The notes under the pieces are model-generated. The model made no database searches and was not told the DNA's origin. It worked only from the letters and a program-made list of their open reading frames with translations. From the NCBI GenBank assembly GCA_050299175.1, contig JBNKVM010000074.1, positions 19,912 to 83,911 on the forward strand: DNA of 64,000 nucleotides. The letters are read 5' to 3'. The DNA is from Thiohalomonadaceae bacterium. Lineage in GTDB: Bacteria > Pseudomonadota > Gammaproteobacteria > Thiohalomonadales > Thiohalomonadaceae. Below, in pieces: positions 1,975-50,518 of the stretch; within the stretch, counting starts at the first letter, position 1; every line of letters begins with the position of its first letter. The translations under genes were made by a program, and so were the position numbers.

Positions 1975-3624
1975 ATGTTGAACATGACCGACACCCATCG
2001 TCAGGGACGGCGGCACAACCTGCTGGAGACACTGACCGCACTGTTCCTGCACAGTGGCGGCGGCGTTTTCGGCAAGCGCATGCGCCTGCTGCTGATCGGT
2101 GTCGGCAATACCTTCGCCCTGCTGGTTCTCAATCTCGCGCTGCTGCTCAGCTTCCCCGAATACAAAGATATCCTGCTGTTCACCTTTGGTGTCCTGATAC
2201 TTGGTGGCATAGTCCAGCTCATTGCTATCACCATCGCCTTCCGCCGCTTCCTGCTCCATCCCAGCGAAGAGCTGAAAGACTGGTCAGATGAGATCCGCGG
2301 CGGCAACCTGAGCATCCGCCTGCAACCGGAAGAGATGGGAGAATTGAAGGAAGTCTCCAAGGACATCAACAACCTGCTCGATTACCTGCAGAATCTGACC
2401 CGTCACATGGACGACGAGATCAAACGCCAGACCAAGCGCTTCGAGCAGAAAGCCAACTCGCTGCAGGTACTCTACGACGTCGCCGCCAGCCTCAACGCCT
2501 CCCGCGACCTCAAGGACCTGCTAACCCGTTTCCTCCACACCATGCGCGACATCGTCAACGCCAAAGCGGGCACGGTGCGGCTGCTCAATGAGAGCAACCA
2601 AATGGAACTGGTAGCCAGCATCGGCCTGGACGAAGCGGTGGTGGAACAGGAACGGCTGGTGCCGGTACAGCGCTGCCTCTGTGGTAATGCGTTAACCGGC
2701 GGCGAGGTGCTGTTCCAGCACGATCTCAACCCCTGTAACCAGTGGATTGGTCGTCCGCTGCTGGACGACGTCGATCTGGAGATGATCGCCGTGCCGTTGC
2801 AGTACCACGGCAAGAACCTCGGGGTTTACAACCTGTTTGTGGAAAAGGAAGACCTCGACTCCCGCGACGAGGTCAAGGCGCTGTTCACCAGCATCGGCCG
2901 CCACCTGGGCATGGCCATCGAAAAGGCCCACCTGGACGACGAATCGAAGCGCCTCTCCATTATTAATGAACGCAACGCCATGGCCCATGAGCTGCACGAT
3001 TCGCTGGCGCAGACCCTCGCCAGCCTGCGTTTCCAGGCGAGCATGCTTGGCGAGGCGGTCGATAAGCAAGGTGCCGACGTCACCCACGAAGACATTGAGC
3101 AGATCAAGAGTGGTCTCAACGACGCCTATACCGAACTGCGCGAACTGCTGGCCCATTTCCGCGCACCGATCAGTTCCCGCGGCCTACTCCCTGCGCTGGA
3201 AGATCTGATCAGCAACTTCCGCAAGCAGACCGGCATGCATGTACTCCTGCAAAAAGAGTGGGACTCCACCCGCCTCTCACCGCACATGGAGATGCAGGTG
3301 CTGCGCATCATCCAGGAAGCGCTGGCCAATGTGCGTAAACACAGCAAGGCCAACACCGTGCGGGTGCTGCTGCGCTGTGACAACGAAGGCCACTACAACA
3401 TTCTGGTCGAGGACGACGGTGTCGGTCTGGCGATGCAGCCCTTCAGCGGTCACCCCGGCGAACACCTCGGCCTGTCGATCATGGAAGAGCGCGCCCGCTA
3501 TCTGGGCGGCGAATTGCGTATTGAGAGTGAATCCGGAGAGGGAACAAGGGTACAATTGGCCTTTAGCACCGCCGATGGCGGTGACGATAAAGAAAAACCA
3601 CAACAACATTTCGCCCTCATTTAG
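1975..3624 (+). CDS. membrane sensor histidine kinase (TM-HAMP-GAF-HisKA_3-HATPase; NarX/NarQ-like architecture)
   Basis: The N-terminus is hydrophobic. The HisKA_3 H-box is HELHDSLAQTLASL. The C-terminal ATPase motifs are EALANVRKH and DDGVGL...GLSIMEERA. Confidence 0.8.
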   Translation: MLNMTDTHRQGRRHNLLETLTALFLHSGGGVFGKRMRLLLIGVGNTFALLVLNLALLLSFPEYKDILLFTFGVLILGGIVQLIAITIAFRRFLLHPSEELKDWSDEIRGGNLSIRLQPEEMGELKEVSKDINNLLDYLQNLTRHMDDEIKRQTKRFEQKANSLQVLYDVAASLNASRDLKDLLTRFLHTMRDIVNAKAGTVRLLNESNQMELVASIGLDEAVVEQERLVPVQRCLCGNALTGGEVLFQHDLNPCNQWIGRPLLDDVDLEMIAVPLQYHGKNLGVYNLFVEKEDLDSRDEVKALFTSIGRHLGMAIEKAHLDDESKRLSIINERNAMAHELHDSLAQTLASLRFQASMLGEAVDKQGADVTHEDIEQIKSGLNDAYTELRELLAHFRAPISSRGLLPALEDLISNFRKQTGMHVLLQKEWDSTRLSPHMEMQVLRIIQEALANVRKHSKANTVRVLLRCDNEGHYNILVEDDGVGLAMQPFSGHPGEHLGLSIMEERARYLGGELRIESESGEGTRVQLAFSTADGGDDKEKPQQHFALI

Positions 3625-3642
3625 GGCCATTCAAAAAAACCT

Positions 3643-4293
3643 ATGCGCGTACTGCTGGTAGATGACCATACCCTTTTCCGTAGCGGCCTCGAGACCCTGC
3701 TGGAACGTCATGGAATTGAGGTGATTGCCACCGCCGGCAACGGACGGGAAGGCTTTTTCGTGGCGCAGGAACTCAAGCCCGATGTGGTGTTGCTGGACAT
3801 GCGCATGCCGGAGATGAGCGGCCTCGAAGTCCTTTCAGGTCTACGCGCTGTGGGATTTAAAAGCCCAATTGTGATGCTCACCACCAGTAATGAAGAACAG
3901 GATTTGGTAGAGTGCCTGCGTAACGGTGCCAGCGGCTATCTGCTTAAGGATATGGAGCCGGGTGAACTGGTTAACGCCCTGCGCGGCATCATGGAGGGCA
4001 AGACCATTGTTGCACCCGAGTTGGGCGCGGTATTGGCCCGCGTGGTACAGGGCGAAGGGGAACAGACTGAGCCGAAAGAGGTCAGTCCCTTTGGCGACCT
4101 GACACCGCGGGAACTGGAGATCCTCTGCCTGCTCGCGGAAGGCCAGAGCAACAAGGTGATCGCCCGTAACCTGGGGATATCCGACGGTACGGTGAAACTC
4201 CACGTGAAGGCGATCCTGCGCAAGCTCGATGTCCATTCACGGGTCGAAGCCGCCGTGATGGCCGTGGAACAGAATTTCTGCAACAAGGAATAG
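3643..4293 (+). CDS. NarL/FixJ-family response regulator (REC + LuxR-type HTH)
   Basis: The receiver motifs are MRVLLVDDH...DVVLLDMRMP. The C-terminal HTH reads LTPRELEILCLLAEGQSNKVIARNLGISDGTVKLHV. The start is 19 nt downstream of the kinase gene. Confidence 0.85.
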   Translation: MRVLLVDDHTLFRSGLETLLERHGIEVIATAGNGREGFFVAQELKPDVVLLDMRMPEMSGLEVLSGLRAVGFKSPIVMLTTSNEEQDLVECLRNGASGYLLKDMEPGELVNALRGIMEGKTIVAPELGAVLARVVQGEGEQTEPKEVSPFGDLTPRELEILCLLAEGQSNKVIARNLGISDGTVKLHVKAILRKLDVHSRVEAAVMAVEQNFCNKE

Positions 4294-8564: not shown

Positions 8565-9896
8565 CTATTTTTTAGTGAACAGAGCTATTGATTCCACATG
8601 TGCCGTATGTGGAAACATATCCATCACGCCGACCTTTGCCAGAGTGTAACCATGTTCGTTGACCAATAGCCCCGCGTCACGCGCCAGGGTCGCCGGATTA
8701 CAGGAGACGTAGACGATCCGTTTCACACCCAGTTTGGCGATATGTGGGATCGCCTCCATTGCCCCGTCGCGTGCCGGGTCTAACAGCACCTTATCGAAGC
8801 CCTGCGACCACCAGGGTAACTGCTCCACCTCTTTCGCCAGATCGGCGACGTGAAACTCGACGTTAGTAATCGCATTGAGTTCGGCATTTTCCCGCGCTCG
8901 TTGCACCAGCAACTCCAGCCCTTCCACGCCGACTACCTCTCGAGCACGGCGCGCCAGTGGCAGGGTAAAATTACCGACGCCACAGAAGAGATCCAGCACC
9001 CTCTCGTCGGGCTGAACCTCCAGCAACTCAATGGCATAGGGCACCATCTTGCGGTTAATGTCGGTGTTTACCTGGGTGAAACCATTAGGGGTGAAGTTAA
9101 AACGCACGTCGAACTCGGGCAACGCATAACTCAACTGAGTTTGTTCGGGCCAAAGCGGCTCGACGGTGTCAGGGCCACCGGATTGCAAAAAGAAATGCAA
9201 CTCGTGCTGTTTGGCAAAGGCGATCAATTTCTCCTGGTCCGTGGTAGTTAACGGTTTCAGGTTACGAAATACCAGGGCAGTTTGGTTGTCGTCCACCGCC
9301 ACTTCGATCTGTGCGATCTCGCGACGCGCCTCCAGTGAGGCGATCAGGGTTTGCAGTTCCTGCAGATGTTCGCCAACCGTCGGATAGAGAATTTCGCAAC
9401 GCTGCATGTCGACCACGTAGGGTTTGCGCTTTTCGCGGAAACCGATCAACGCACGATCTTTTTTATCCACAAAGCGCACACCCATACGCGCCTTGCGTCG
9501 ATATCCCCAATGTGGCCCGGTCAGCGGCTGCAGTACTTCGGCGGGGTTTACCTTGCCGAGACGCTCGAAGTTTTCAAGCAGCACTTCCTGTTTGGCCAAT
9601 ATCTGCGCTTGCGCATCCATGTGTTGCAGGGCGCAACCACCGCAGATGCCGAATACCGCGCATTTCGGTTCTACCCGCTCTGGCGCAGCCTGATGTATCT
9701 CCTGCGCGACCCCGACATCGTAGCTACGCTTCTTCTCCACGTAGAGGAAACTCACCTCTTCGCCTTTCAGCGCACCTTCGACAAATACCGTCTTGCCGTC
9801 GATGTGGGCGACACCACGGCCGTCGTGTGAGAGATCGTCAATAGTGACTCTAACCGGATCGGTAGGGAGTTGCGGGCGTTTACGTCTTCTTGCCAT
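8565..9896 (-). CDS. rlmD: 23S rRNA (uracil1939-C5)-methyltransferase
   Basis: TRAM-like N-terminus, a 4-Cys cluster (CAVFGICGGCALQH) and a SAM-methyltransferase motif (VLDLFCGVGNFTLPLA). Confidence 0.85.
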   Translation of the reverse strand: MARRRKRPQLPTDPVRVTIDDLSHDGRGVAHIDGKTVFVEGALKGEEVSFLYVEKKRSYDVGVAQEIHQAAPERVEPKCAVFGICGGCALQHMDAQAQILAKQEVLLENFERLGKVNPAEVLQPLTGPHWGYRRKARMGVRFVDKKDRALIGFREKRKPYVVDMQRCEILYPTVGEHLQELQTLIASLEARREIAQIEVAVDDNQTALVFRNLKPLTTTDQEKLIAFAKQHELHFFLQSGGPDTVEPLWPEQTQLSYALPEFDVRFNFTPNGFTQVNTDINRKMVPYAIELLEVQPDERVLDLFCGVGNFTLPLARRAREVVGVEGLELLVQRARENAELNAITNVEFHVADLAKEVEQLPWWSQGFDKVLLDPARDGAMEAIPHIAKLGVKRIVYVSCNPATLARDAGLLVNEHGYTLAKVGVMDMFPHTAHVESIALFTKK

Positions 9897-39819: not shown

Positions 39820-40197
39820 CTAAAACTGTTTCAATGCTGCCGCAAGCATACTATCCATGCGGCTAATGTGGAGGTTAAGACGTTCGGGCAGTCGTTCACG
39901 AACATAGGCCCGGGCAAAAGGTTGACGACGCAGGAGTAGCTGGCGGATCTCTGTCAATAGTTGACGATGATCTTCCTTGTGTTCCGCGGTGTGACGAAAA
40001 TCGACCTGTTCCATCAACCGTTCTTCATCAGCGAAATGCTCCTCCATCTTCCCTAACAGAGAAAGAAAGCGGGGTGGAAATTCCTCTTCGCTGGCCACGT
40101 TTAACTGCTGGGCGAATTCAGCCAGATGCCGGTGAATTTCGTCCAACGGCGAATAATCAAGCACCACAACAGAAAAAGGTTTGAGTGTCTCAGCCAT
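39820..40197 (-). CDS. hemerythrin-like (HHE cation-binding) domain protein
   Basis: His/Glu spacing: EIHRHLAEF, EEHFADEE, HTAEHKEDH and HISRMD. Confidence 0.6.
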   Translation of the reverse strand: MAETLKPFSVVVLDYSPLDEIHRHLAEFAQQLNVASEEEFPPRFLSLLGKMEEHFADEERLMEQVDFRHTAEHKEDHRQLLTEIRQLLLRRQPFARAYVRERLPERLNLHISRMDSMLAAALKQF

Positions 40198-42449: not shown

Positions 42450-44018
42450 TTAGCGAACCAGGTCGTAGTTGTAGTCGGTGGTTCCCATACCGCGGGTCTC
42501 TTCGTCCAGACGCTCCAGTACCGAGTTCACCAGGGTGGTGAGCACCTGCATGGCGCCCTCGTAACCCAGAGTGGTTGAACGGTGCAGGTGGTGACGATCG
42601 AAGATCGGGAAACCGATACGAATCAGCGGTACCTCGAACTCCTTACCCTTGTACAGGGTGTCACGCTGGATGAACTTGCCGTAGCTGTTACCGATCATGA
42701 AGTCCGGCTTGTTGGTGAACATCAGTGAACGGAAGTGCCATAGGTCCTTACCGACGTGAACTTTGGTCTCCTGACCGTACGGAGAGGCTTCCAGCATCTT
42801 GTTCATCGCCTTCATCCAACGCTTGTTACCGTTGTTCGCCAGTACGTCGGTCGGCTCGGCACCCAGTTCCAGCAGGAAGCGGGTCATGCCCATGACAAAG
42901 TCTGGGTCACCGTAGAGAGCGAACTTCTTACCATGCAGCCAGGTGTGGCTGTCGGTCATCATGTCCACCAGACGGCCACGCTCCTTCTCCAGGCTGGCCG
43001 GGATCGGCTTGCCAGTGATTTCGGAGACCTTCATCAGGAAGGCGTCGGTTGCTTCCAGACCCATCGGGATATCGATCTTCGGTGCTTCATGCTTCCAGGT
43101 GCCTTTGGCAAACTTCATCGACTTGTCTGACTGCCACTGTTGCAGGAACAGGGTGTCCTTGGCATTCGGCGCGTCCTTGATCTCGTCGATGGTGGTACCG
43201 CCTTCATACATACGGAAGGTACCGTCCGCCGGGGTATCCAGCACTTCAGACGGGTCAGAAAGCAGGCTGTAACCAACACCCATTTCGTCCATCATCCGCT
43301 TCATGACACGGTAGTTGCCCAGATAGGTTTCGAAGCCCGGCACGATGTTGATCTTACCGTTGCTACCAACTTCTTTACCTTCCATGTCATTCAGGGTGAA
43401 GTAGCGGGCAATCCCTTCGAACATGTTGTCCCAACCGGTGGTGTGGGAGCCAACAAAGCTCGGGGTATGCGCGAACGGAGTCGGGAACTCTTCCGGCACG
43501 CTGCCGCCTTTTTTCGCATTGCCGATAAAGGCATTCAGGTCGTCACCGATAACCTCGGCCATACAGGTGGTGGAAACGGCAATCATCGCCGGCTTGTACA
43601 GGGCCTTGGCATTTTCCAGACCGGCAAACATGTTTTTCTGCCCACCGAATACCGCTGCATCTTCAGTCATGGAGTCGGAAACACAGGCGACCGGCTCTTT
43701 GAAATGACGGTTGAAGTAGGTACGGAAGTAGGCAACACAACCCTGGGAACCGTGTACGTAAGGCAGGGTCTTTTCAAAACCCAGTGAACACAGTACCGCA
43801 CCCAGAGGCTGACAAGCCTTGGCGGGGTTGACGGTCAGAGCTTCACGGTTAAAGTTCAGCTCCTGATACTCCATGGTGGTGGTCCAGTTGAAGGTCTCGT
43901 CGATCTTTTCCTGGGGCACCTTGTTTTCGTATTGCTCCTTGTTCTTGAGAGTGGTTTTGTATTCCTCCTCTCGGAACAGCGGATAACACGGCATTACTTT
44001 TTCAGCTGACTGAGGCAT
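42450..44018 (-). CDS. nifK: nitrogenase molybdenum-iron protein beta chain
   Basis: 522 aa containing ...PAKACQPLGAV...VHGSQGCVAY... Confidence 0.95.
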   Translation of the reverse strand: MPQSAEKVMPCYPLFREEEYKTTLKNKEQYENKVPQEKIDETFNWTTTMEYQELNFNREALTVNPAKACQPLGAVLCSLGFEKTLPYVHGSQGCVAYFRTYFNRHFKEPVACVSDSMTEDAAVFGGQKNMFAGLENAKALYKPAMIAVSTTCMAEVIGDDLNAFIGNAKKGGSVPEEFPTPFAHTPSFVGSHTTGWDNMFEGIARYFTLNDMEGKEVGSNGKINIVPGFETYLGNYRVMKRMMDEMGVGYSLLSDPSEVLDTPADGTFRMYEGGTTIDEIKDAPNAKDTLFLQQWQSDKSMKFAKGTWKHEAPKIDIPMGLEATDAFLMKVSEITGKPIPASLEKERGRLVDMMTDSHTWLHGKKFALYGDPDFVMGMTRFLLELGAEPTDVLANNGNKRWMKAMNKMLEASPYGQETKVHVGKDLWHFRSLMFTNKPDFMIGNSYGKFIQRDTLYKGKEFEVPLIRIGFPIFDRHHLHRSTTLGYEGAMQVLTTLVNSVLERLDEETRGMGTTDYNYDLVR

Positions 44019-44036
44019 GACATTTCTCCTACCGCG

Positions 44037-44050
44037 CCACTAATCCGTGG
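44037..44050 (-). promoter_or_regulatory. conserved leader hairpin upstream of the nifK RBS
   Basis: The minus strand reads CCAC-GGATTA-GTGG inside the shared motif GTCCAC(C)GGATTAG(G)TGGCG. It lies about 10 nt 5' of the SD. Confidence 0.4.
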
Positions 44051-44077
44051 ACAACGGCGTTATGGACTGTTTCAGCA

Positions 44078-44100
44078 CCGCGGGCCACGTGGGCCCGCGG
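44078..44100 (-). other. 9-bp GC hairpin in the nifD-nifK intergenic region
   Basis: CCGCGGGCC-acgtg-GGCCCGCGG with no U-tract. It could be an mRNA stabiliser or processing site. Confidence 0.4.
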
Positions 44101-44107
44101 CAACCGT

Positions 44108-45574
44108 TTAGGCTGCGGCGCTATCCGCGTCGCTGGCTTCACTCTTCTTCCACGGCGCCTGCAACTTGCCCCAGCAGGGGTTGTTGAGGGTCATATCCAT
44201 ATCGCGGGCAAAGATGGCAAAGCCGTCATAACCATGGTAAGGACCGGAATAGTCCCAGCTGTGCATTTGACGGAAAGGAATGCCCATCTTCTGGAAGATG
44301 TACTTCTCTTTGATGTCGGAACCGACCATGTCAGGCTTGACCTTCTTTACGAACTCTTCGAATTCGTAGCCGGTTACGTCATCGTAGATCAGCGTAGCGT
44401 TACCCATATCCTTGATGGTGCGGTCGTAGTCGTCGTTATGCGCGAACTCATAACCGGTACCAACAACTTCCATGCCGAGATCTTCGTAAGCGCCGATAAC
44501 GTGACGCGGACGCAGACCGCCGACATAGAGCATGACTTTTTTGCCTTCCAGGCGCGGCTTGTACTTATCGATGATGGCTTGCATCAGCGGCTTGTACTTT
44601 TCGATTACCTTTTCGGCATTAGCCTGGATGGTTTCGTCGAACTTGGCCGCAATCGCACGAAGAGACTCTTCGATTTTGGTCGGACCGAAGAAGTTGTACT
44701 CCATCCACGGAATACCGAACTTCTCTTCCATGTGACGAGAGATGTAGTTCATGGAACGGTAGCAGTGCAGCAGATTCAGTTTCACCTTGGGGGTGTTTTC
44801 CATCTCTGCAACGGTGCCATCACCGGACCACTGGGCAACAACATTGAGGCCCATCTCTTCAAGAATGGTACGTGAAGCCCAGGCATCACCACCGATGTTG
44901 TAGTCACCGAGGATGGCTACATCGTAAGGACCCGCTTCGCCTTCGGCTTTATCCAGCATGTGATCGCGGATAGCGTCGTTAGCGATGTGGTGACCCAGTG
45001 ACTGGGACACGCCGCGGAAACCTTCGCAACGCACAGGAACAACCGGCTTACTCAAGTCGGCTGAAGCCTTTTTGGAAACTGCTTCGATGTCGTCACCGAT
45101 AAGACCGATAGGACACTCGGACTGAACAGAGATACCCTTGTTCAGCGGGAACAGTGTTTCGACTTCGTCGATCAGTTTGGCCAGTTTCTTGTCACCACCG
45201 AATACGATGTCCTTCTCCTGGAAATCCGAGGTGAAGTTCATGGTACCGAAGGTATTAACACCGGTAGCACCAACGTAGTAGTTGCGGCGACCAGCACGGG
45301 AGTACTGACCACAACCTACCGGACCGTGGGAGATATGGATCATGTCCTTAATCGGACCCCATACCACACCCTTGGAACCGGCATAGGCACAACCACGAAT
45401 GGTCATTACACCCGGCAGGGATTTACGGTTGGAAGTAATGCACTTCTTAGACTGCTCAACGCTCTGGTCGTTTGCAGTCAAGTGCTTGGCGCGATCTTTC
45501 TTCGCGTCCTCAGGATAGACTTCGAGCACTTCCTGAATAAGCGCTTCTGTCTCTTCACGAGTCATCGTTGCCAT
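44108..45574 (-). CDS. nifD: nitrogenase molybdenum-iron protein alpha chain
   Basis: 488 aa with ...[30 protein letters not shown]... Confidence 0.95.
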
Positions 45575-45593
45575 TGTTTAACTCCTATCATCG

Positions 45594-45609
45594 CCACCTA
45601 ATCCGGTGG
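45594..45609 (-). promoter_or_regulatory. conserved leader hairpin upstream of the nifD RBS
   Basis: The minus strand reads CCACC-GGATTA-GGTGG, the same motif as upstream of nifK. Confidence 0.4.
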
Positions 45610-45666
45610 ACGTTGAAGTTGAGGGACGGGACGCGGCCATTCCGCGCCCCTGAACAACCAAATAGC

Positions 45667-46584
<918 letters not shown>

Positions 46585-46608: not shown

Positions 46609-46624
46609 AGCAAGGAGCGTACCA
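46609..46624 (-). promoter_or_regulatory. sigma-54 (-24/-12) promoter of nifHDK
   Basis: The minus strand reads TGGTAC-GCTCC-TTGCT, about 50 nt upstream of the nifH ATG. Confidence 0.75.
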
Positions 46625-46721: not shown

Positions 46722-46737
46722 TGTATGGATACCGACA
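46722..46737. promoter_or_regulatory. NifA UAS (TGT-N10-ACA) for nifH
   Basis: TGTATGGATACCGACA is centred about 130 nt upstream of the predicted nifH start site. An AT-rich tract lies in between. It overlaps the draT ATG at 46725. Confidence 0.6.
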
Positions 46738-47573
46738 AAACCTCAAAGCCCCGCGAAGCCGCCGCACAGACCCTGCCCCGCCAGGCCTGCCTGCCGATTA
46801 ACCGCTGCAATCTGCCCGCGGTCATCCTCGGCAGCCTCACCTTCCAACAGCATCCCACCGCACTCTCTATTGATGGGGTGGAGGTGTTACACCGCGATCT
46901 ACTGCGCCGGCTGGACGGGATCAAAGACCCGGGCAACCGCGCACAACAGTTTATCGATTACATGACGGTGCACTTCCTATTGAATGCACTCGATGAAGCG
47001 GGACTGGATGAAGAGAGCCGACTGGATCGCAGCAAGGCTGACTATCGGCGCCTGCTGCGCGGCTGGTCCTTCGACTCCGACAGTCGGGACGCCGCCGTCA
47101 TGAAGGGCTGGGTGGAGACGCGTTTTGGTCTGCTGCCCCGCTTTCATCAACAACCGATCCGTAGTAGCGACGACGAGGCCTACCATCAATATCAGCACGC
47201 CTACGCCCAGGGAATCTACAACACCAACTCACTGGAGGCGCAGCTGGACCTGCTCTACACCTATTGCCAATACGAACTGCAGCGTCAGTTTCCTGAGCAG
47301 ACACATATTGCACTCTACCGTGGCAGTAACGACACCGAGCAGATGCGTCACCCAAAAGCCAACAACAACAAAAAGCCCCTGCTGCTACTCAATAACCTGA
47401 ATTCATTTAGCAGCAGTATCGAACGCGCCTCGGAATTCGGCGATCGGGTATTTTGCATCGAGGTGCCGTTAAGCAAGATCGTCTTCTATTCAGAACTCAT
47501 CCCCAGCTATCTCAAGGCAGAAAATGAGTACATTGTCATCGGCGGTGTCTATCAAGCCGAACAGGTAATGTAA
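46725..47573 (+). CDS. draT: NAD+--dinitrogen-reductase ADP-D-ribosyltransferase
   Basis: RRLLRGWSFDSDSRDAAVMKGWVETRFGLLPRFH, QLDLLYTYCQYEL, LYRGSND and NNLNSFSS...VPLSKIVFY...ENEYIVIGG match my recollection of Azospirillum and Rhodospirillum DraT. The gene is divergent from nifH, as in those organisms. Confidence 0.85.
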   Translation: MDTDKTSKPREAAAQTLPRQACLPINRCNLPAVILGSLTFQQHPTALSIDGVEVLHRDLLRRLDGIKDPGNRAQQFIDYMTVHFLLNALDEAGLDEESRLDRSKADYRRLLRGWSFDSDSRDAAVMKGWVETRFGLLPRFHQQPIRSSDDEAYHQYQHAYAQGIYNTNSLEAQLDLLYTYCQYELQRQFPEQTHIALYRGSNDTEQMRHPKANNNKKPLLLLNNLNSFSSSIERASEFGDRVFCIEVPLSKIVFYSELIPSYLKAENEYIVIGGVYQAEQVM

Positions 47574-47584
47574 GCCGACAGAAT

Positions 47585-47600
47585 TGTCGACTTTGCGACA
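47585..47600. promoter_or_regulatory. NifA UAS-like palindrome upstream of the SIR2-like gene
   Basis: TGTCGACTTTGCGACA fits TGT-N10-ACA and closely resembles the nifE UAS TGTCGCAATTGCGACA. Confidence 0.6.
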
Positions 47601-47651
47601 AAGTCCAAACGATGCATAACGCTCTACCTATAAAAACAACACCTTAGAAAG

Positions 47652-47667
47652 CGGCCCGATAATTGCT
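47652..47667 (+). promoter_or_regulatory. sigma-54-type promoter (GG-N10-GC)
   Basis: CGGCCC-GATAA-TTGCT lies 40 nt upstream of the ATG at 47707 and about 60 nt downstream of the UAS, with AT-rich DNA between. Confidence 0.55.
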
Positions 47668-47706
47668 GTAACCAAGTAAATCCATCAGACACTAGTGGAA
47701 TCACTC

Positions 47707-48570
47707 ATGGAACAGCATCTCATCGACACCATTAAATCCGGTCTTCAGGACGGCAGCATCATCCCCTACCTGGGGCCACAGGCGTTGACCGGTTCCGTTA
47801 ATGCGGATGGCGAACCAATCCCTGCCGACAGCGACAGCCTGATCCTGGCGATGAACAACGGCCGCCCGATGGCACCGAAACTGATGTACGAATTCCCCCG
47901 CGCAGCCATGAACCTGGAATTGAAGCGTGGCCGCTCTTTCATTACCCGTTTCCTGAATAAACTTTACGGCGATACCGAATGGAGCCGTGCGCCGATTCAT
48001 GACTGGCTCAAGGCGACAAAACCTGCCTGTGTGATTGATATTAACCGCGATCTGCAACTGCAACAGAGCTATAGCGATACACCGCATAATCTGATGATCG
48101 GCATCGCCCGTATCGGTGGCACCGACTTCCGTTACAAGCTCTATTACTACGATGGTTCCAGTTACAAAGAGATCACCAATGAGGAAGCGGATCCGTCATT
48201 GCCCCTGTTGATTAAACCGATGGGGGCACCACAACCGGAGGCTAACTACATCGCCTCCGATGCGGACTATGTGGATTACATTACCGAGCTGATGGGTGGC
48301 TTCGGTGTTCCGAAATTTTTCAAGGAGTACCGCAAAAAGAAACGCTATCTGTTGCTCGGGCTAAGTCTGAATCGTGATACCGAACGCATGGTGCTACATG
48401 ACATCAGTCTTGATCGTGCCTCAGAGTCCGGCTGGGCAATTATCCCCGGCGCAACCGACAAGGAAAAACGCTTTTGCAAAACCAAACTGAATATAGAAGT
48501 GATCGATATTCCTCTGTCAGAGTTCATGCAGGCCTTTGGTGTTGAAGTGCCAGAACCGGTCGAGGCATAA
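47707..48570 (+). CDS. divergent SIR2_2-like (sirtuin-fold) protein; not DraG
   Basis: The motif order resembles the SIR2_2 family: IIPYLGPQAL, VIDINRDLQLQQ, LIKPMGAP, IASDADYVDYI and RYLLLGLSLNRDTERMV. The GAG loop and the catalytic His of the HG motif are substituted. No ADP-ribosylglycohydrolase motifs are present. An alternative GTG start lies at 47695. Confidence 0.45.
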   Translation: MEQHLIDTIKSGLQDGSIIPYLGPQALTGSVNADGEPIPADSDSLILAMNNGRPMAPKLMYEFPRAAMNLELKRGRSFITRFLNKLYGDTEWSRAPIHDWLKATKPACVIDINRDLQLQQSYSDTPHNLMIGIARIGGTDFRYKLYYYDGSSYKEITNEEADPSLPLLIKPMGAPQPEANYIASDADYVDYITELMGGFGVPKFFKEYRKKKRYLLLGLSLNRDTERMVLHDISLDRASESGWAIIPGATDKEKRFCKTKLNIEVIDIPLSEFMQAFGVEVPEPVEA

Positions 48571-48572
48571 AC

Positions 48573-48800
48573 ATGACACATCACTTCAAACCCTGTGTCA
48601 GTCGTATCGCCTGCACCGAGGACGGTACACATTGCCGTGCCTGTGGCAGAAGTCATGAAGAGATCAATGCACTACGTAACCTGGTCAATCAGGTCACAGA
48701 TTTTGCGTTGGGGATGGATTACGACAACAACGAGGAATTCCTTGAATACCTGAAATCCAAGGTATTGAAGAAAGTAAAAAGCGCCAGGCAATCTGCCTAG
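48573..48800 (+). CDS. small four-Cys protein (DUF1289-like C-x5-C-x6-C-x2-C)
   Basis: KPCVSRIACTEDGTHCRACGRSHEEI. The start is 2 nt after the SIR2-like stop. Confidence 0.4.
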   Translation: MTHHFKPCVSRIACTEDGTHCRACGRSHEEINALRNLVNQVTDFALGMDYDNNEEFLEYLKSKVLKKVKSARQSA

Positions 48801-48817
48801 TGCTAACAAGAACTTCC

Positions 48818-48858
48818 TGCCTCTACCAGCATTGATGATGTTGGTAGAGGCAGTTTTT
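48818..48858 (+). terminator. intrinsic terminator
   Basis: CTGCCTCTACCA-12 nt-TGGTAGAGGCAG followed by TTTTT. Confidence 0.7.
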
Positions 48859-48868
48859 CAAACAAATT

Positions 48869-49336
48869 CTAATCGAGATAAAAAAAACGCTTCAACCAGC
48901 CACTGCCTTTGCGCGCTTCACTGGTCTGGATAATCGTGTCGATATTGGCCTTAACCGCCGGCACGTAATCCGCATCATCATGTTTGATGTGATTCACCAG
49001 CCAATTGGCCAGCATACCGTGCAACTCCACCGCAACATCTTCCCCATCATCCAGTCGCTTGCGATACTCGCCGACGCGACGGGTGAAAAGTTCGTGGACT
49101 TTTTTGTGCGGTCGACAATATTCGTACCCGGCCTCTTCCTGTATCTCTTCTTCAAAGGCAAAGTGAGACATTGTGTATTGCACACACTCTTCAACAACCT
49201 GGCGTACTGTATCGGGTCGCTGTGTCTCTTTTACTGTTTCCAACTGATTAATAAAATCGACAATCTGTCGATGCTGCTCGTCAATAAGTTCGATACCTGT
49301 ATTCAGGTCTTTTGTCCAAGTAATAGGCATAGACAA
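48869..49336 (-). CDS. bacteriohemerythrin
   Basis: W...L.TGIELIDEQHRQIV...HF..EE...H...H..F...NWLVNHIKHDDADY. Confidence 0.85.
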   Translation of the reverse strand: MSMPITWTKDLNTGIELIDEQHRQIVDFINQLETVKETQRPDTVRQVVEECVQYTMSHFAFEEEIQEEAGYEYCRPHKKVHELFTRRVGEYRKRLDDGEDVAVELHGMLANWLVNHIKHDDADYVPAVKANIDTIIQTSEARKGSGWLKRFFYLD

Positions 49337-49536: not shown

Positions 49537-49986
49537 TTACCCCAACAGTCTGCGGATAAATCCCTTGCCGCCCCTTTTCTGCTTACGCAGTGTCGCCTGA
49601 TGCAGCTTCACTGCGCCGACGTAGTCGGCATCATCCAGCTTAATGTGATTAACCAACCAACGTGCCAGCATATCGTGTAGTTCAGCAGCAACATCTTCAC
49701 CAGCCTTGAGTCGCCGCTGATATTCCGAAATACGTTGTGTAAACAGCGCATGAACCTTGCGGTGAACATCGAGAAATTCGTATCCCGCCTGTTGCTGCAA
49801 CTGTTCCTCATAAGAAAAGTGAGTACAGGTATAGTCGACACAGGCGCCGACTACGTCCGCCACTGAATCCTTGTCCTGTTGCTCGCGAGCTATCTCCAGG
49901 TTATTGATAAATTCGACAATGCGTCGGTGCTGTTTGTCGATTTCCGCTATCCCTGTGTCCAGTTCGTCGGACCATACAATTGACAT
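49537..49986 (-). CDS. bacteriohemerythrin (paralogue)
   Basis: It has the same motif set (IDKQHRRIV...[14 protein letters not shown]) and is clearly paralogous to 48869..49336. Confidence 0.85.
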
Positions 49987-50261: not shown

Positions 50262-50312
50262 AAAAAAGCCGACCAGTTGGTCGGCTTCTTCATTATTGGT
50301 CGGGGCGAGAGG
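50262..50312 (-). repeat. imperfect 51-nt copy of the tRNA-Pro 3' end (16 nt) plus its downstream terminator
   Basis: AAAAAAGCCGACCAGTTGGTCGGCTTCTTCATTATTGGTCGGGGCGAGAGG is compared with 50407..50457. The offset is 145 nt and there are a few mismatches. Confidence 0.8.
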
Positions 50313-50405: not shown

Positions 50406-50431
50406 AAAAAAAGCCGACCAGCTGGTCGGCT
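50406..50431 (-). terminator. intrinsic terminator of tRNA-Pro
   Basis: The minus strand reads GCCGAC-CAGCTG-GTCGGC followed by a U7 run. Confidence 0.75.
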
Positions 50432-50440
50432 TTCTCATTA

Positions 50441-50518
<78 letters not shown>

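Follow-up and report, generated by a model that had tools for sequence, protein, structure and literature searches.

The operon downstream of draT and its promoter

We examined a nif locus in a stretch of 64 kb from contig JBNKVM010000074.1 of a Thiohalomonadaceae bacterium (the whole stretch is called the window below). Here a gene for a SIR2-like protein of 287 amino acids and a short gene for a four-cysteine protein of 75 amino acids (p75) follow draT. A preliminary description of this DNA, drawn from the letters alone, had presented the pair as an undescribed module of the nif regulon, linked to the nitrogenase switch-off by DraT and sitting where draG is expected. The SIR2-like gene almost certainly belongs to an already known, mechanistically unexplained family of nif accessory genes, that of pnfA, and the locus is best described as a normal nif accessory operon, not a draG replacement. 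The features on which this account is built are as follows, in window coordinates.

42450-46557, minus strand: nifK-nifD-nifH, the upstream block of the locus
45667-46557, minus strand: nifH, divergent from draT
46725-47573, plus strand: draT, dinitrogenase reductase ADP-ribosyltransferase (Pfam DRAT, E 1e-98, full length)
47585-47600, plus strand: putative NifA upstream activator sequence (UAS) TGTCGACTTTGCGACA, a strict palindrome whose TGT-N10-ACA form recurs upstream of orthologs
47630-47639, plus strand: A/T-rich block ATAAAAACAA between UAS and promoter, ATAAAA[AT]CAA in Thiohalomonadaceae relatives
47652-47667, plus strand: putative sigma-54 -24/-12 promoter CGGCCCGATAATTGCT (GG-N10-GC), by motif and conservation
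47707-48570, plus strand: SIR2-like pnfA-type gene, 287 amino acids (open reading frame (ORF), Pfam SIR2_2, AlphaFold2, Foldseek)
48573-48800, plus strand: p75, a DUF1289-like gene with four cysteines (ORF, 2-nt gap after the SIR2-like stop)
48817-48858, plus strand: predicted intrinsic terminator ending the two-gene operon (17-bp stem at 48817-48853 with 8 G-C pairs, a 3-nt loop, then TTTTT)

The gene order agrees with what had been described: draT is present and divergent from nifH, and the four-cysteine ORF begins 2 nt after the SIR2-like stop and is followed by a strong terminator, with coordinates and stem in accord. draT is the upstream neighbour of the SIR2-like gene and lies outside its operon, with a spacer of 133 nt between the two ORFs. 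We read positions 47585-48858 as a two-gene nif operon with its own predicted NifA/sigma-54 promoter, in which the narrow gap points to translational coupling of p75 to the SIR2-like gene.

The palindrome had been compared to the UAS of nifE, and the likeness is borne out: the strict form TGTCG-N6-CGACA has only two copies in 64 kb, here and upstream of nifE, where 0.1 would be expected by chance. The looser UAS and -24/-12 patterns occur in the window at chance frequency only and were not counted as evidence by themselves. Comparison with relatives was more informative. Across the seven closest, the UAS, the ATAAAA[AT]CAA block and the promoter core CGGCCCGATA[ATC]TTGC are kept (the core is identical in 7/7), while the flanks of the UAS and the remaining spacer drift. 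The A/T-rich block is possibly a DNA-bending site, similar to those bound by integration host factor. Over a wider set of orthologs, a TGT-N10-ACA element was found within 400 nt upstream of the gene at 74/81 loci, against ~8 in shuffled sequences, usually between -105 and -170. For the -24/-12 element, a score of 8 or more out of 10 was reached at 46/81 loci (~7 in shuffles), usually between -50 and -60. The case for the promoter is thus modest from the single sequence and strong from the comparison, and on this sequence basis the proposed membership in the NifA/sigma-54 regulon, including a GG-N10-GC promoter placed after the palindrome, is upheld.

Fold and active site of the SIR2-like protein

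All the peptides that had been quoted as following the motif order of the SIR2_2 family were recovered from the 287-amino-acid ORF (IIPYLGPQAL, VIDINRDLQL, LIKPMGAP, SDADYVDYI and RYLLLGLSLNRD). Its match to Pfam SIR2_2 (PF13289) covers residues 155-266 only and lies narrowly above threshold (27.3 bits, cut-off 24.5, E 4e-6). It is the sole Pfam match of the protein at E<=1; the canonical SIR2 model (PF02146) was not matched, and no NCBIfam model was matched by either the 287- or the 75-amino-acid protein. An AlphaFold2 model built with 64 homologs reached a predicted local distance difference test score (pLDDT) of 87.7 and a predicted template modelling score (pTM) of 0.88. Searched with Foldseek, this model matched the SIR2 NADases KomC, AVAST5, DSR2 and ThsA (E ~1e-8, template modelling (TM) score ~0.6, 11-16% identity). 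The structural comparison with Sir2 and ThsA folds that had been proposed therefore returned a sirtuin-like fold. A family profile run against the sequences of the PDB matched the same NADases across the N-terminal half, with VIDINRD aligned on their TTNYD motif.

The position of the catalytic residue was read from the family alignment. P0231, a distant family member with canonical motifs (FKFHG), has a histidine that aligns with that of the DSR2 sequence KVHG, and the column falls on M172 of the window protein. The corresponding xHG histidines are H171 in DSR2, H146 in KomC and H152 in ThsA, and an H171A mutant of DSR2 is held in the PDB. This catalytic histidine is essential in ThsA, DSR2 and canonical sirtuins. 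At position 172, the 81 orthologs carry Met in 64 cases, Leu in 14, and Ser, Thr and His in one each, so that the residue is missing from 80/81. By comparison, G23, E71, R76, N113, R114, D115, K170, G173, D185, D187 and E194 are invariant over the same 81 sequences, among them the Asn and Asp of the TTNYD-type motif (N113 and D115). It had been stated that both the glycine-rich loop and the catalytic histidine are replaced. The second part holds; the first does so only in part, as the loop is altered rather than lost (LGPQAL, LGPxAL in the family, against LGAGxS), with G23 invariant. The model and alignments together describe a predicted Rossmann fold of the SIR2_2 (prokaryotic sirtuin-like) type that keeps the glycine loop and the Asn/Asp of the nicotinamide-ribose pocket and has lost the catalytic histidine.

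These residues bear on a role given to the family in recent papers, where the name 'SIR2 deacetylases' underlies regulatory ideas. The loss of the histidine in 80/81 orthologs, beside an invariant Asn/Asp motif, weighs against deacetylation. Canonical sirtuin deacetylases (CobB/Sir2, PF02146) share a Rossmann-type NAD-binding core of the same superfamily, but the window protein lacks a PF02146 match, an internal Zn-ribbon (no four-cysteine motif occurs within the 287-residue chain) and the catalytic histidine, and because of these three absences the role is unlikely. With the histidine missing almost everywhere and the pocket residues fixed, the question moves from deacetylation to ligand binding or sensing. 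Sirtuin folds bind NAD+.

An enzyme that works with non-canonical residues is the main rival to a non-catalytic protein. Such an enzyme would consume NAD+ and modify Nif proteins as a deacylase, an ADP-ribosyltransferase or a hydrolase. This comes near to what has been proposed, as a 'SIR2 deacetylase' role, for ZMO1821 of Zymomonas mobilis and for the Thalassolituus genes. Very strong purifying selection, the invariant polar residues E71, R76, H98, H127, K170, R223, D224 and R227, and the retained TTNYD-type Asn and Asp would all suit such an enzyme, as would the acetylation of NifA, NifH and NifK in Z. mobilis (PMC8600466). Set against this are the histidine missing in 80/81, which is the very residue chosen for point mutants in relatives (DSR2 H171A, KomC H146N), the unmatched canonical Pfam SIR2 model, and a polypeptide without Zn-ribbon. 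We consider an active enzyme unlikely, while giving it more weight than any other departure from the account preferred below.

The nearest solved structures also raise the question of a stray anti-phage effector, that is, a SIR2-type NADase that came to lie beside draT by chance. The window protein resembles the defence SIR2_2 NADases (Thoeris ThsA, DSR2, Kongming KomC and AVAST5) in fold (TM ~0.6), in the TTNYD-type Asn/Asp and in an (S/T)xxDY motif. It differs from them in sequence (11-16% identical), in having a single domain with no sensor or partner domain, in the lost catalytic histidine, and in lying outside a defence-island context; no PADLOC model was matched by either protein of the pair. 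Further points against an effector are the nif surroundings and NifA sites that at least 80 species share, a protein tree that tracks taxonomy, and the nitrogenase phenotype of a pnfA mutant. The PADLOC negative and the conserved nif context and NifA sites led us to reject this candidate, whose probability we regard as negligible. The earlier argument that a nif-type promoter speaks against a stray defence sirtuin is sound.

The pnfA family, its nif linkage and draG

PST1325 of Pseudomonas stutzeri A1501 was named pnfA by Yan et al. (2010, BMC Genomics 11:11; PMC2820453). Its product of 31.7 kDa was reported from diazotrophs only, with homologs in A. vinelandii, Azoarcus BH72, Dechloromonas aromatica and Halorhodospira halophila and a second subfamily at ~20% identity (PMC2820453). 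The gene is linked to nifHDK in opposite orientation, carries a -24/-12 promoter and TGT-N10-ACA, requires nifA and rpoN for expression and is induced 9.7-fold under N2-fixing conditions (PMC2820453). Under microaerobic conditions, nitrogenase activity in a non-polar mutant was 23% of that of the wild type, with nifH transcribed at an unchanged level; the mutant behaved as the wild type under plain anaerobiosis and lost fixation with nitrate as electron acceptor (PMC2820453). The authors suggested a role in electron transfer or O2 protection; the strain has neither DraT nor DraG (PMC2820453). In the one organism tested, a mutant thus lost about three quarters of its nitrogenase activity. As the family was named in 2010, with expression and mutant data, the earlier label 'undescribed' is not supported.

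The window protein almost certainly belongs to this family, a match set by descriptions, annotation and shared homolog-bearing taxa. At 287 amino acids it is near the 31.7 kDa of PnfA (~32 kDa), its gene is likewise restricted to diazotrophs, linked to and divergent from nifHDK, and preceded by TGT-N10-ACA and a -24/-12 promoter. PST_1325 is now annotated as 'SIR2 family protein', beside nifH, and this is a routine annotation in nif clusters (PMC11332353, PMC6925177, PMC8594446, PMC8600466, bioRxiv 10.64898/2026.08.28.747955). Both proteins have Dechloromonas and Azoarcus-type homologs and a distant second subfamily; we found Dechloromonas homologs 61-62% identical to the window protein, and further homologs in Rhodocyclaceae. 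The window differs in that draT is interposed after nifH, a coupled four-cysteine gene follows downstream, and the host, a sulfur-oxidiser of the Thiohalomonadaceae, possesses draT; the window protein was compared with PST1325 by description.

Relatives in Alphaproteobacteria have also been reported. Rcc03262 of Rhodobacter capsulatus, a 'SIR2 family protein' of the nifB1-rcc03265-nifZT-rcc03262 operon, was undetectable in a nifA double mutant. ZMO1821 rises during N2 fixation, and a deacetylase role was proposed for it (PMC8600466). These two proteins and that of R. etli p42d resemble the window protein in fold family and in being NifA-dependent or induced by N2 fixation, but they form a separate subfamily. 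The genes of R. capsulatus and R. etli are the last of nifB-fdxN-nifZ-nifT operons, and ZMO1821 sits between nifA and nifHDK. In our searches, a gene of this second subfamily (25-28% identity) closes nifA-nifB-fdx-nifZ-nifT operons on symbiosis plasmids of rhizobia, and the subfamily also occurs on a nif plasmid of Methylococcus. The protein of R. etli p42d is 25% identical over 92% of the query and has Trp for the motif Asn and Tyr at the His position; both residues have been lost in the subfamily. draT and draG were not among the annotated genes of the rhizobial nifZ-nifT-SIR2 locus. A SIR2_2 gene adjoins nifH in 23/25 diazotrophic Thalassolituus genomes, and Paenirhizobium strains lacking draT and draG carry a SIR2-type gene in their nif-fix island.

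The family is compact and widespread. Its homologs fall into 4377 clusters at 90% identity and ~218 representatives at 50% identity, many of them fragments, and at least 588 species carry it in a scan of species-representative genomes; pnfA-type genes adjoin nifH in hundreds of proteobacterial diazotrophs. A Logan contig of run SRR36185848 showed 100% DNA identity to the window, and the closest protein among the related loci (L008) was 92% identical. To describe gene neighbourhoods, we took the 80 best loci (57-92% identity to the window protein; Gamma-, Beta- and Alphaproteobacteria) and mapped nif, draT, draG and p75 by tblastn. ORF calling with all-against-all clustering of these loci lost 18/81 SIR2-like genes to overlapping spurious ORFs and was used only for naming recurrent neighbours. 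Counts within 10 kb refer to the 43 loci with ~10 kb on both sides and are given here.

nif genes: 37/43 loci
draT: 15/43 loci
draG: 15/43 loci
both draT and draG: 8/43 loci
neither draT nor draG: 21/43 loci

These counts describe a conserved, nif-linked family. nifH lies upstream and divergent at 35/58 loci with at least 5 kb of upstream sequence, and draT stands between nifH and the SIR2-like gene at 28/80 related loci. Three layouts recur. nifHDK may be divergent from the SIR2-like gene directly, with no draT (Methylococcales, Marinobacterium), or from draT, with the SIR2-like gene next in line (Thiohalomonadaceae, Rhodocyclales, Methylocystaceae); in the third, either arrangement is joined downstream, on the opposite strand, by draG-nifQ...nifB. 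The protein tree tracks taxonomy, which suggests that the gene travels with the nif cluster.

Several minor observations were made at these loci. In Methylococcales (L030, L041, L053, L063, L078), a conserved protein of ~145 amino acids and a Cys-rich protein similar to GlcF/heterodisulfide reductase lie downstream of the SIR2-like gene, and a SagB/nitroreductase-like gene, LRV Fe-S proteins and a flavodiiron-like gene recur near the family. In L001-L005, a vapBC-type toxin-antitoxin pair (MazE antitoxin and PIN; 9209-9846) is inserted between draT and the SIR2-like gene, and an EAL-domain gene overlaps the end of p75. The SIR2-like match in L014 (2431-3024) ends at residue 197 and the adjacent draG (3126-3869) has masked bases, appearing as X in translation; the short match is probably an artefact of assembly or masking rather than a truncation.

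We then considered draG. As had been noted, the gene after draT is not an ADP-ribosylglycohydrolase (neither operon ORF matches PF03747, ADP_ribosyl_GH), and the 64 kb hold no draG-like gene by tblastn with DraG from a related locus. The usual neighbours of draG in related loci are nifQ and nifB, and these are also missing from the window. The draT-SIR2-p75 order of the window recurs in two sibling assemblies, GCA_050302275.1 (locus L006, 91-94% DNA identity) and GCA_050304195.1 (locus L007). In each of them a contig other than that of the pair has a gene for a canonical DraG (P0360, Pfam ADP_ribosyl_GH); in GCA_050302275.1 it belongs to the arrangement nifB-fdx-arsC-nifQ-(PD40-like)-draG. In assembly JBFEWO01, the SIR2-like/p75 pair (L009) and nifQ-draG are again on different contigs. 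In this lineage, then, the pair is found together with draG and not in its stead, and the proposal of a draG substitute was rejected.

The broader proposal was that of a module of the DraT switch in draG's place, acting as a sensor, a modulator of DraT or an alternative activity for reversal. It draws on the position of the SIR2-like gene directly after draT in the window (and no more than 450 nt from draT in 14 related loci), on the NAD+ binding of sirtuin folds, on a window lacking draG, and on the p75-bearing subclade, which appears to retain draT or draG nearby in most loci. The neighbourhood counts do not favour a special tie to DraT or a place where draG would be expected, with neither gene at 21/43 fully flanked loci and both at 8/43. 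Methylococcales and Marinobacterium have no draT between nifH and the adjoining SIR2-like gene; the rhizobial locus has its subfamily member in a nifB-nifZ-nifT operon; the pnfA mutant that is down ~77% in nitrogenase activity is one of P. stutzeri, which has neither DraT nor DraG; and the sibling assemblies, and likewise JBFEWO01, have the pair together with a canonical draG beside nifQ. A DraT-switch module is accordingly improbable.

Two further observations concern these genes. In L092 (5604-6107) and L093 (611-1424), draT is split into fragments of 167 and 60 amino acids with the SIR2-like gene and p75 intact, and draG was not found within 8 kb; decay of DraT with the pair retained is a possible explanation. 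In L100 (5072-6894), L101 (3069-4894) and L102 (2406-4231), draG overlaps the stop of a gene of ~310 amino acids after nifQ that has a faint PD40 match, which looks like a conserved, translationally coupled pair in the sibling genomes.

Candidate function and the 75-amino-acid partner

The second gene of the operon encodes a protein with the pattern C8-x5-C14-x6-C21-x2-C24. Its match to DUF1289 (PF06945) scores 19.1 bits, below the cut-off of 27, and only the first half of the model is matched; weak matches at E<=0.01 were obtained for 29/32 members of the p75 family. In all, 51 homologs were found. The four cysteines and a TEDGTHCRACGRSHEEI core are near-invariant, and AlphaFold2 predicted an N-terminal Cys knuckle with a helical hairpin (pLDDT 87.3), for which a fold search of the PDB gave zero matches. 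In every context read except L076 (~1.3 kb downstream), the gene stands directly after the SIR2-like gene, and at most loci 2-35 nt separate the two. It is present at ~14/81 loci, in one subclade comprising Thiohalomonadaceae, Sedimenticola, Ca. Thiodiazotropha and a few other Gammaproteobacteria. DUF1289/YdhL proteins (COG 'predicted Fe-S protein') share the N-terminal four-cysteine motif, with weak but consistent matches to their hidden Markov model, and differ in that p75 falls below the Pfam cut-off, has a family-specific C-terminal helical hairpin and keeps a fixed position after a pnfA-type gene. No functional report was found in the DUF1289 literature. We suggest that p75 is probably a lineage-specific, metal-binding partner.

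Taking these results together, we consider it reasonably probable that the SIR2-like gene is the local pnfA ortholog and encodes a nif accessory protein that binds an NAD-type ligand or ADP-ribose, has no deacetylase or NADase action, and is independent of DraT and DraG. The analysis shows how the genes are arranged, the predicted fold with its residue pattern, a conserved promoter, the link to nif and the independence of draT/draG; the ligand binding, the lack of catalysis and the partner role of p75 are what we infer from them. The PnfA-type protein would bind an NAD-type dinucleotide or ADP-ribose and would be neither a lysine deacetylase nor a defence-type NADase, but a non-catalytic, or at least not sirtuin-like, accessory or sensor. 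It would support nitrogenase activity post-transcriptionally, mainly in respiring cells, and would do so independently of DraT and DraG, with p75 as a partner subunit in the sulfur-oxidiser lineage. What this adds to the literature is modest, namely the near-universal loss of the histidine and the subclade-specific four-cysteine partner.

A number of points weigh against this account. The orthology with pnfA rests on descriptions, annotation and shared taxa. A literature search found no biochemical study of any pnfA-type family member. Conservation as high as that seen here (57-92% identity across classes, ~70 invariant columns) is typical of an enzyme, and the part of the lost histidine could be played by another residue, e.g., the invariant H98 or H127. 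A sizeable minority of loci have draT immediately upstream of the SIR2-like gene, and all p75-carrying lineages appear to have a DraT/DraG system, leaving a small probability of functional contact between the pair and DraT/DraG in that subclade.

A more specific form of the accessory reading can be considered for the p75 subclade. There, a PnfA without its histidine and a metal-binding partner might together act as a pseudo-enzyme sensor of NAD(H), ADP-ribose or redox state, signalling to the Fe protein or the DraT/DraG switch. We hold this to be distinctly unlikely, if slightly less so than the switch module above. If true, such a sensor would couple nitrogenase to the respiratory state and provide a mechanism for a nif gene unexplained since 2010.

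The conditions of the pnfA phenotype, microaerobic or nitrate-respiring and not plain anaerobic, would also fit a nucleotide-free scaffold, namely a chaperone or adaptor for the Fe protein, electron delivery or O2 protection, with a metal or Fe-S site contributed by the four-cysteine protein in this lineage. The pnfA authors proposed electron transfer or O2 protection; hemerythrins, flavodiiron-like genes and ferredoxins recur nearby; and the second subfamily lacks both Asn and His. In clade I, however, the pocket motifs are invariant (G23, N113, D115 and D185/D187 of SxxDY), which is hard to explain without a ligand. A scaffold of this kind is therefore a doubtful candidate, about as improbable as the switch module, and we prefer the ligand-binding accessory.

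The surroundings of the operon in the window offered some additional observations. Two bacteriohemerythrin genes lie directly downstream (48869-49336 and 49537-49986, both on the minus strand), and a third hemerythrin-like ORF (39820-40194, minus strand) lies at the tail of the nifHDKTY-side operon. Hemerythrins are O2-binding proteins, and their position flanking the nif genes is compatible with the oxygen-dependent pnfA phenotype. On the other side of draT, a nifH -24/-12 element, TGGTACGCTCCTTGCT, was read by eye on the minus strand (46609-46624), and a TGT-N10-ACA at 46722-46737 overlaps the draT start codon, so that draT begins within the nifH control region. Finally, a direct repeat of 51 nt (50262-50312 and 50407-50457; 94% identity, 145 nt apart) was found further downstream, its second copy covering the 3' end of a tRNA-Pro(GGG) gene (50442-50518, minus strand). 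Either an att-like scar at the border of the nif region or a terminator duplicated there may account for this repeat.

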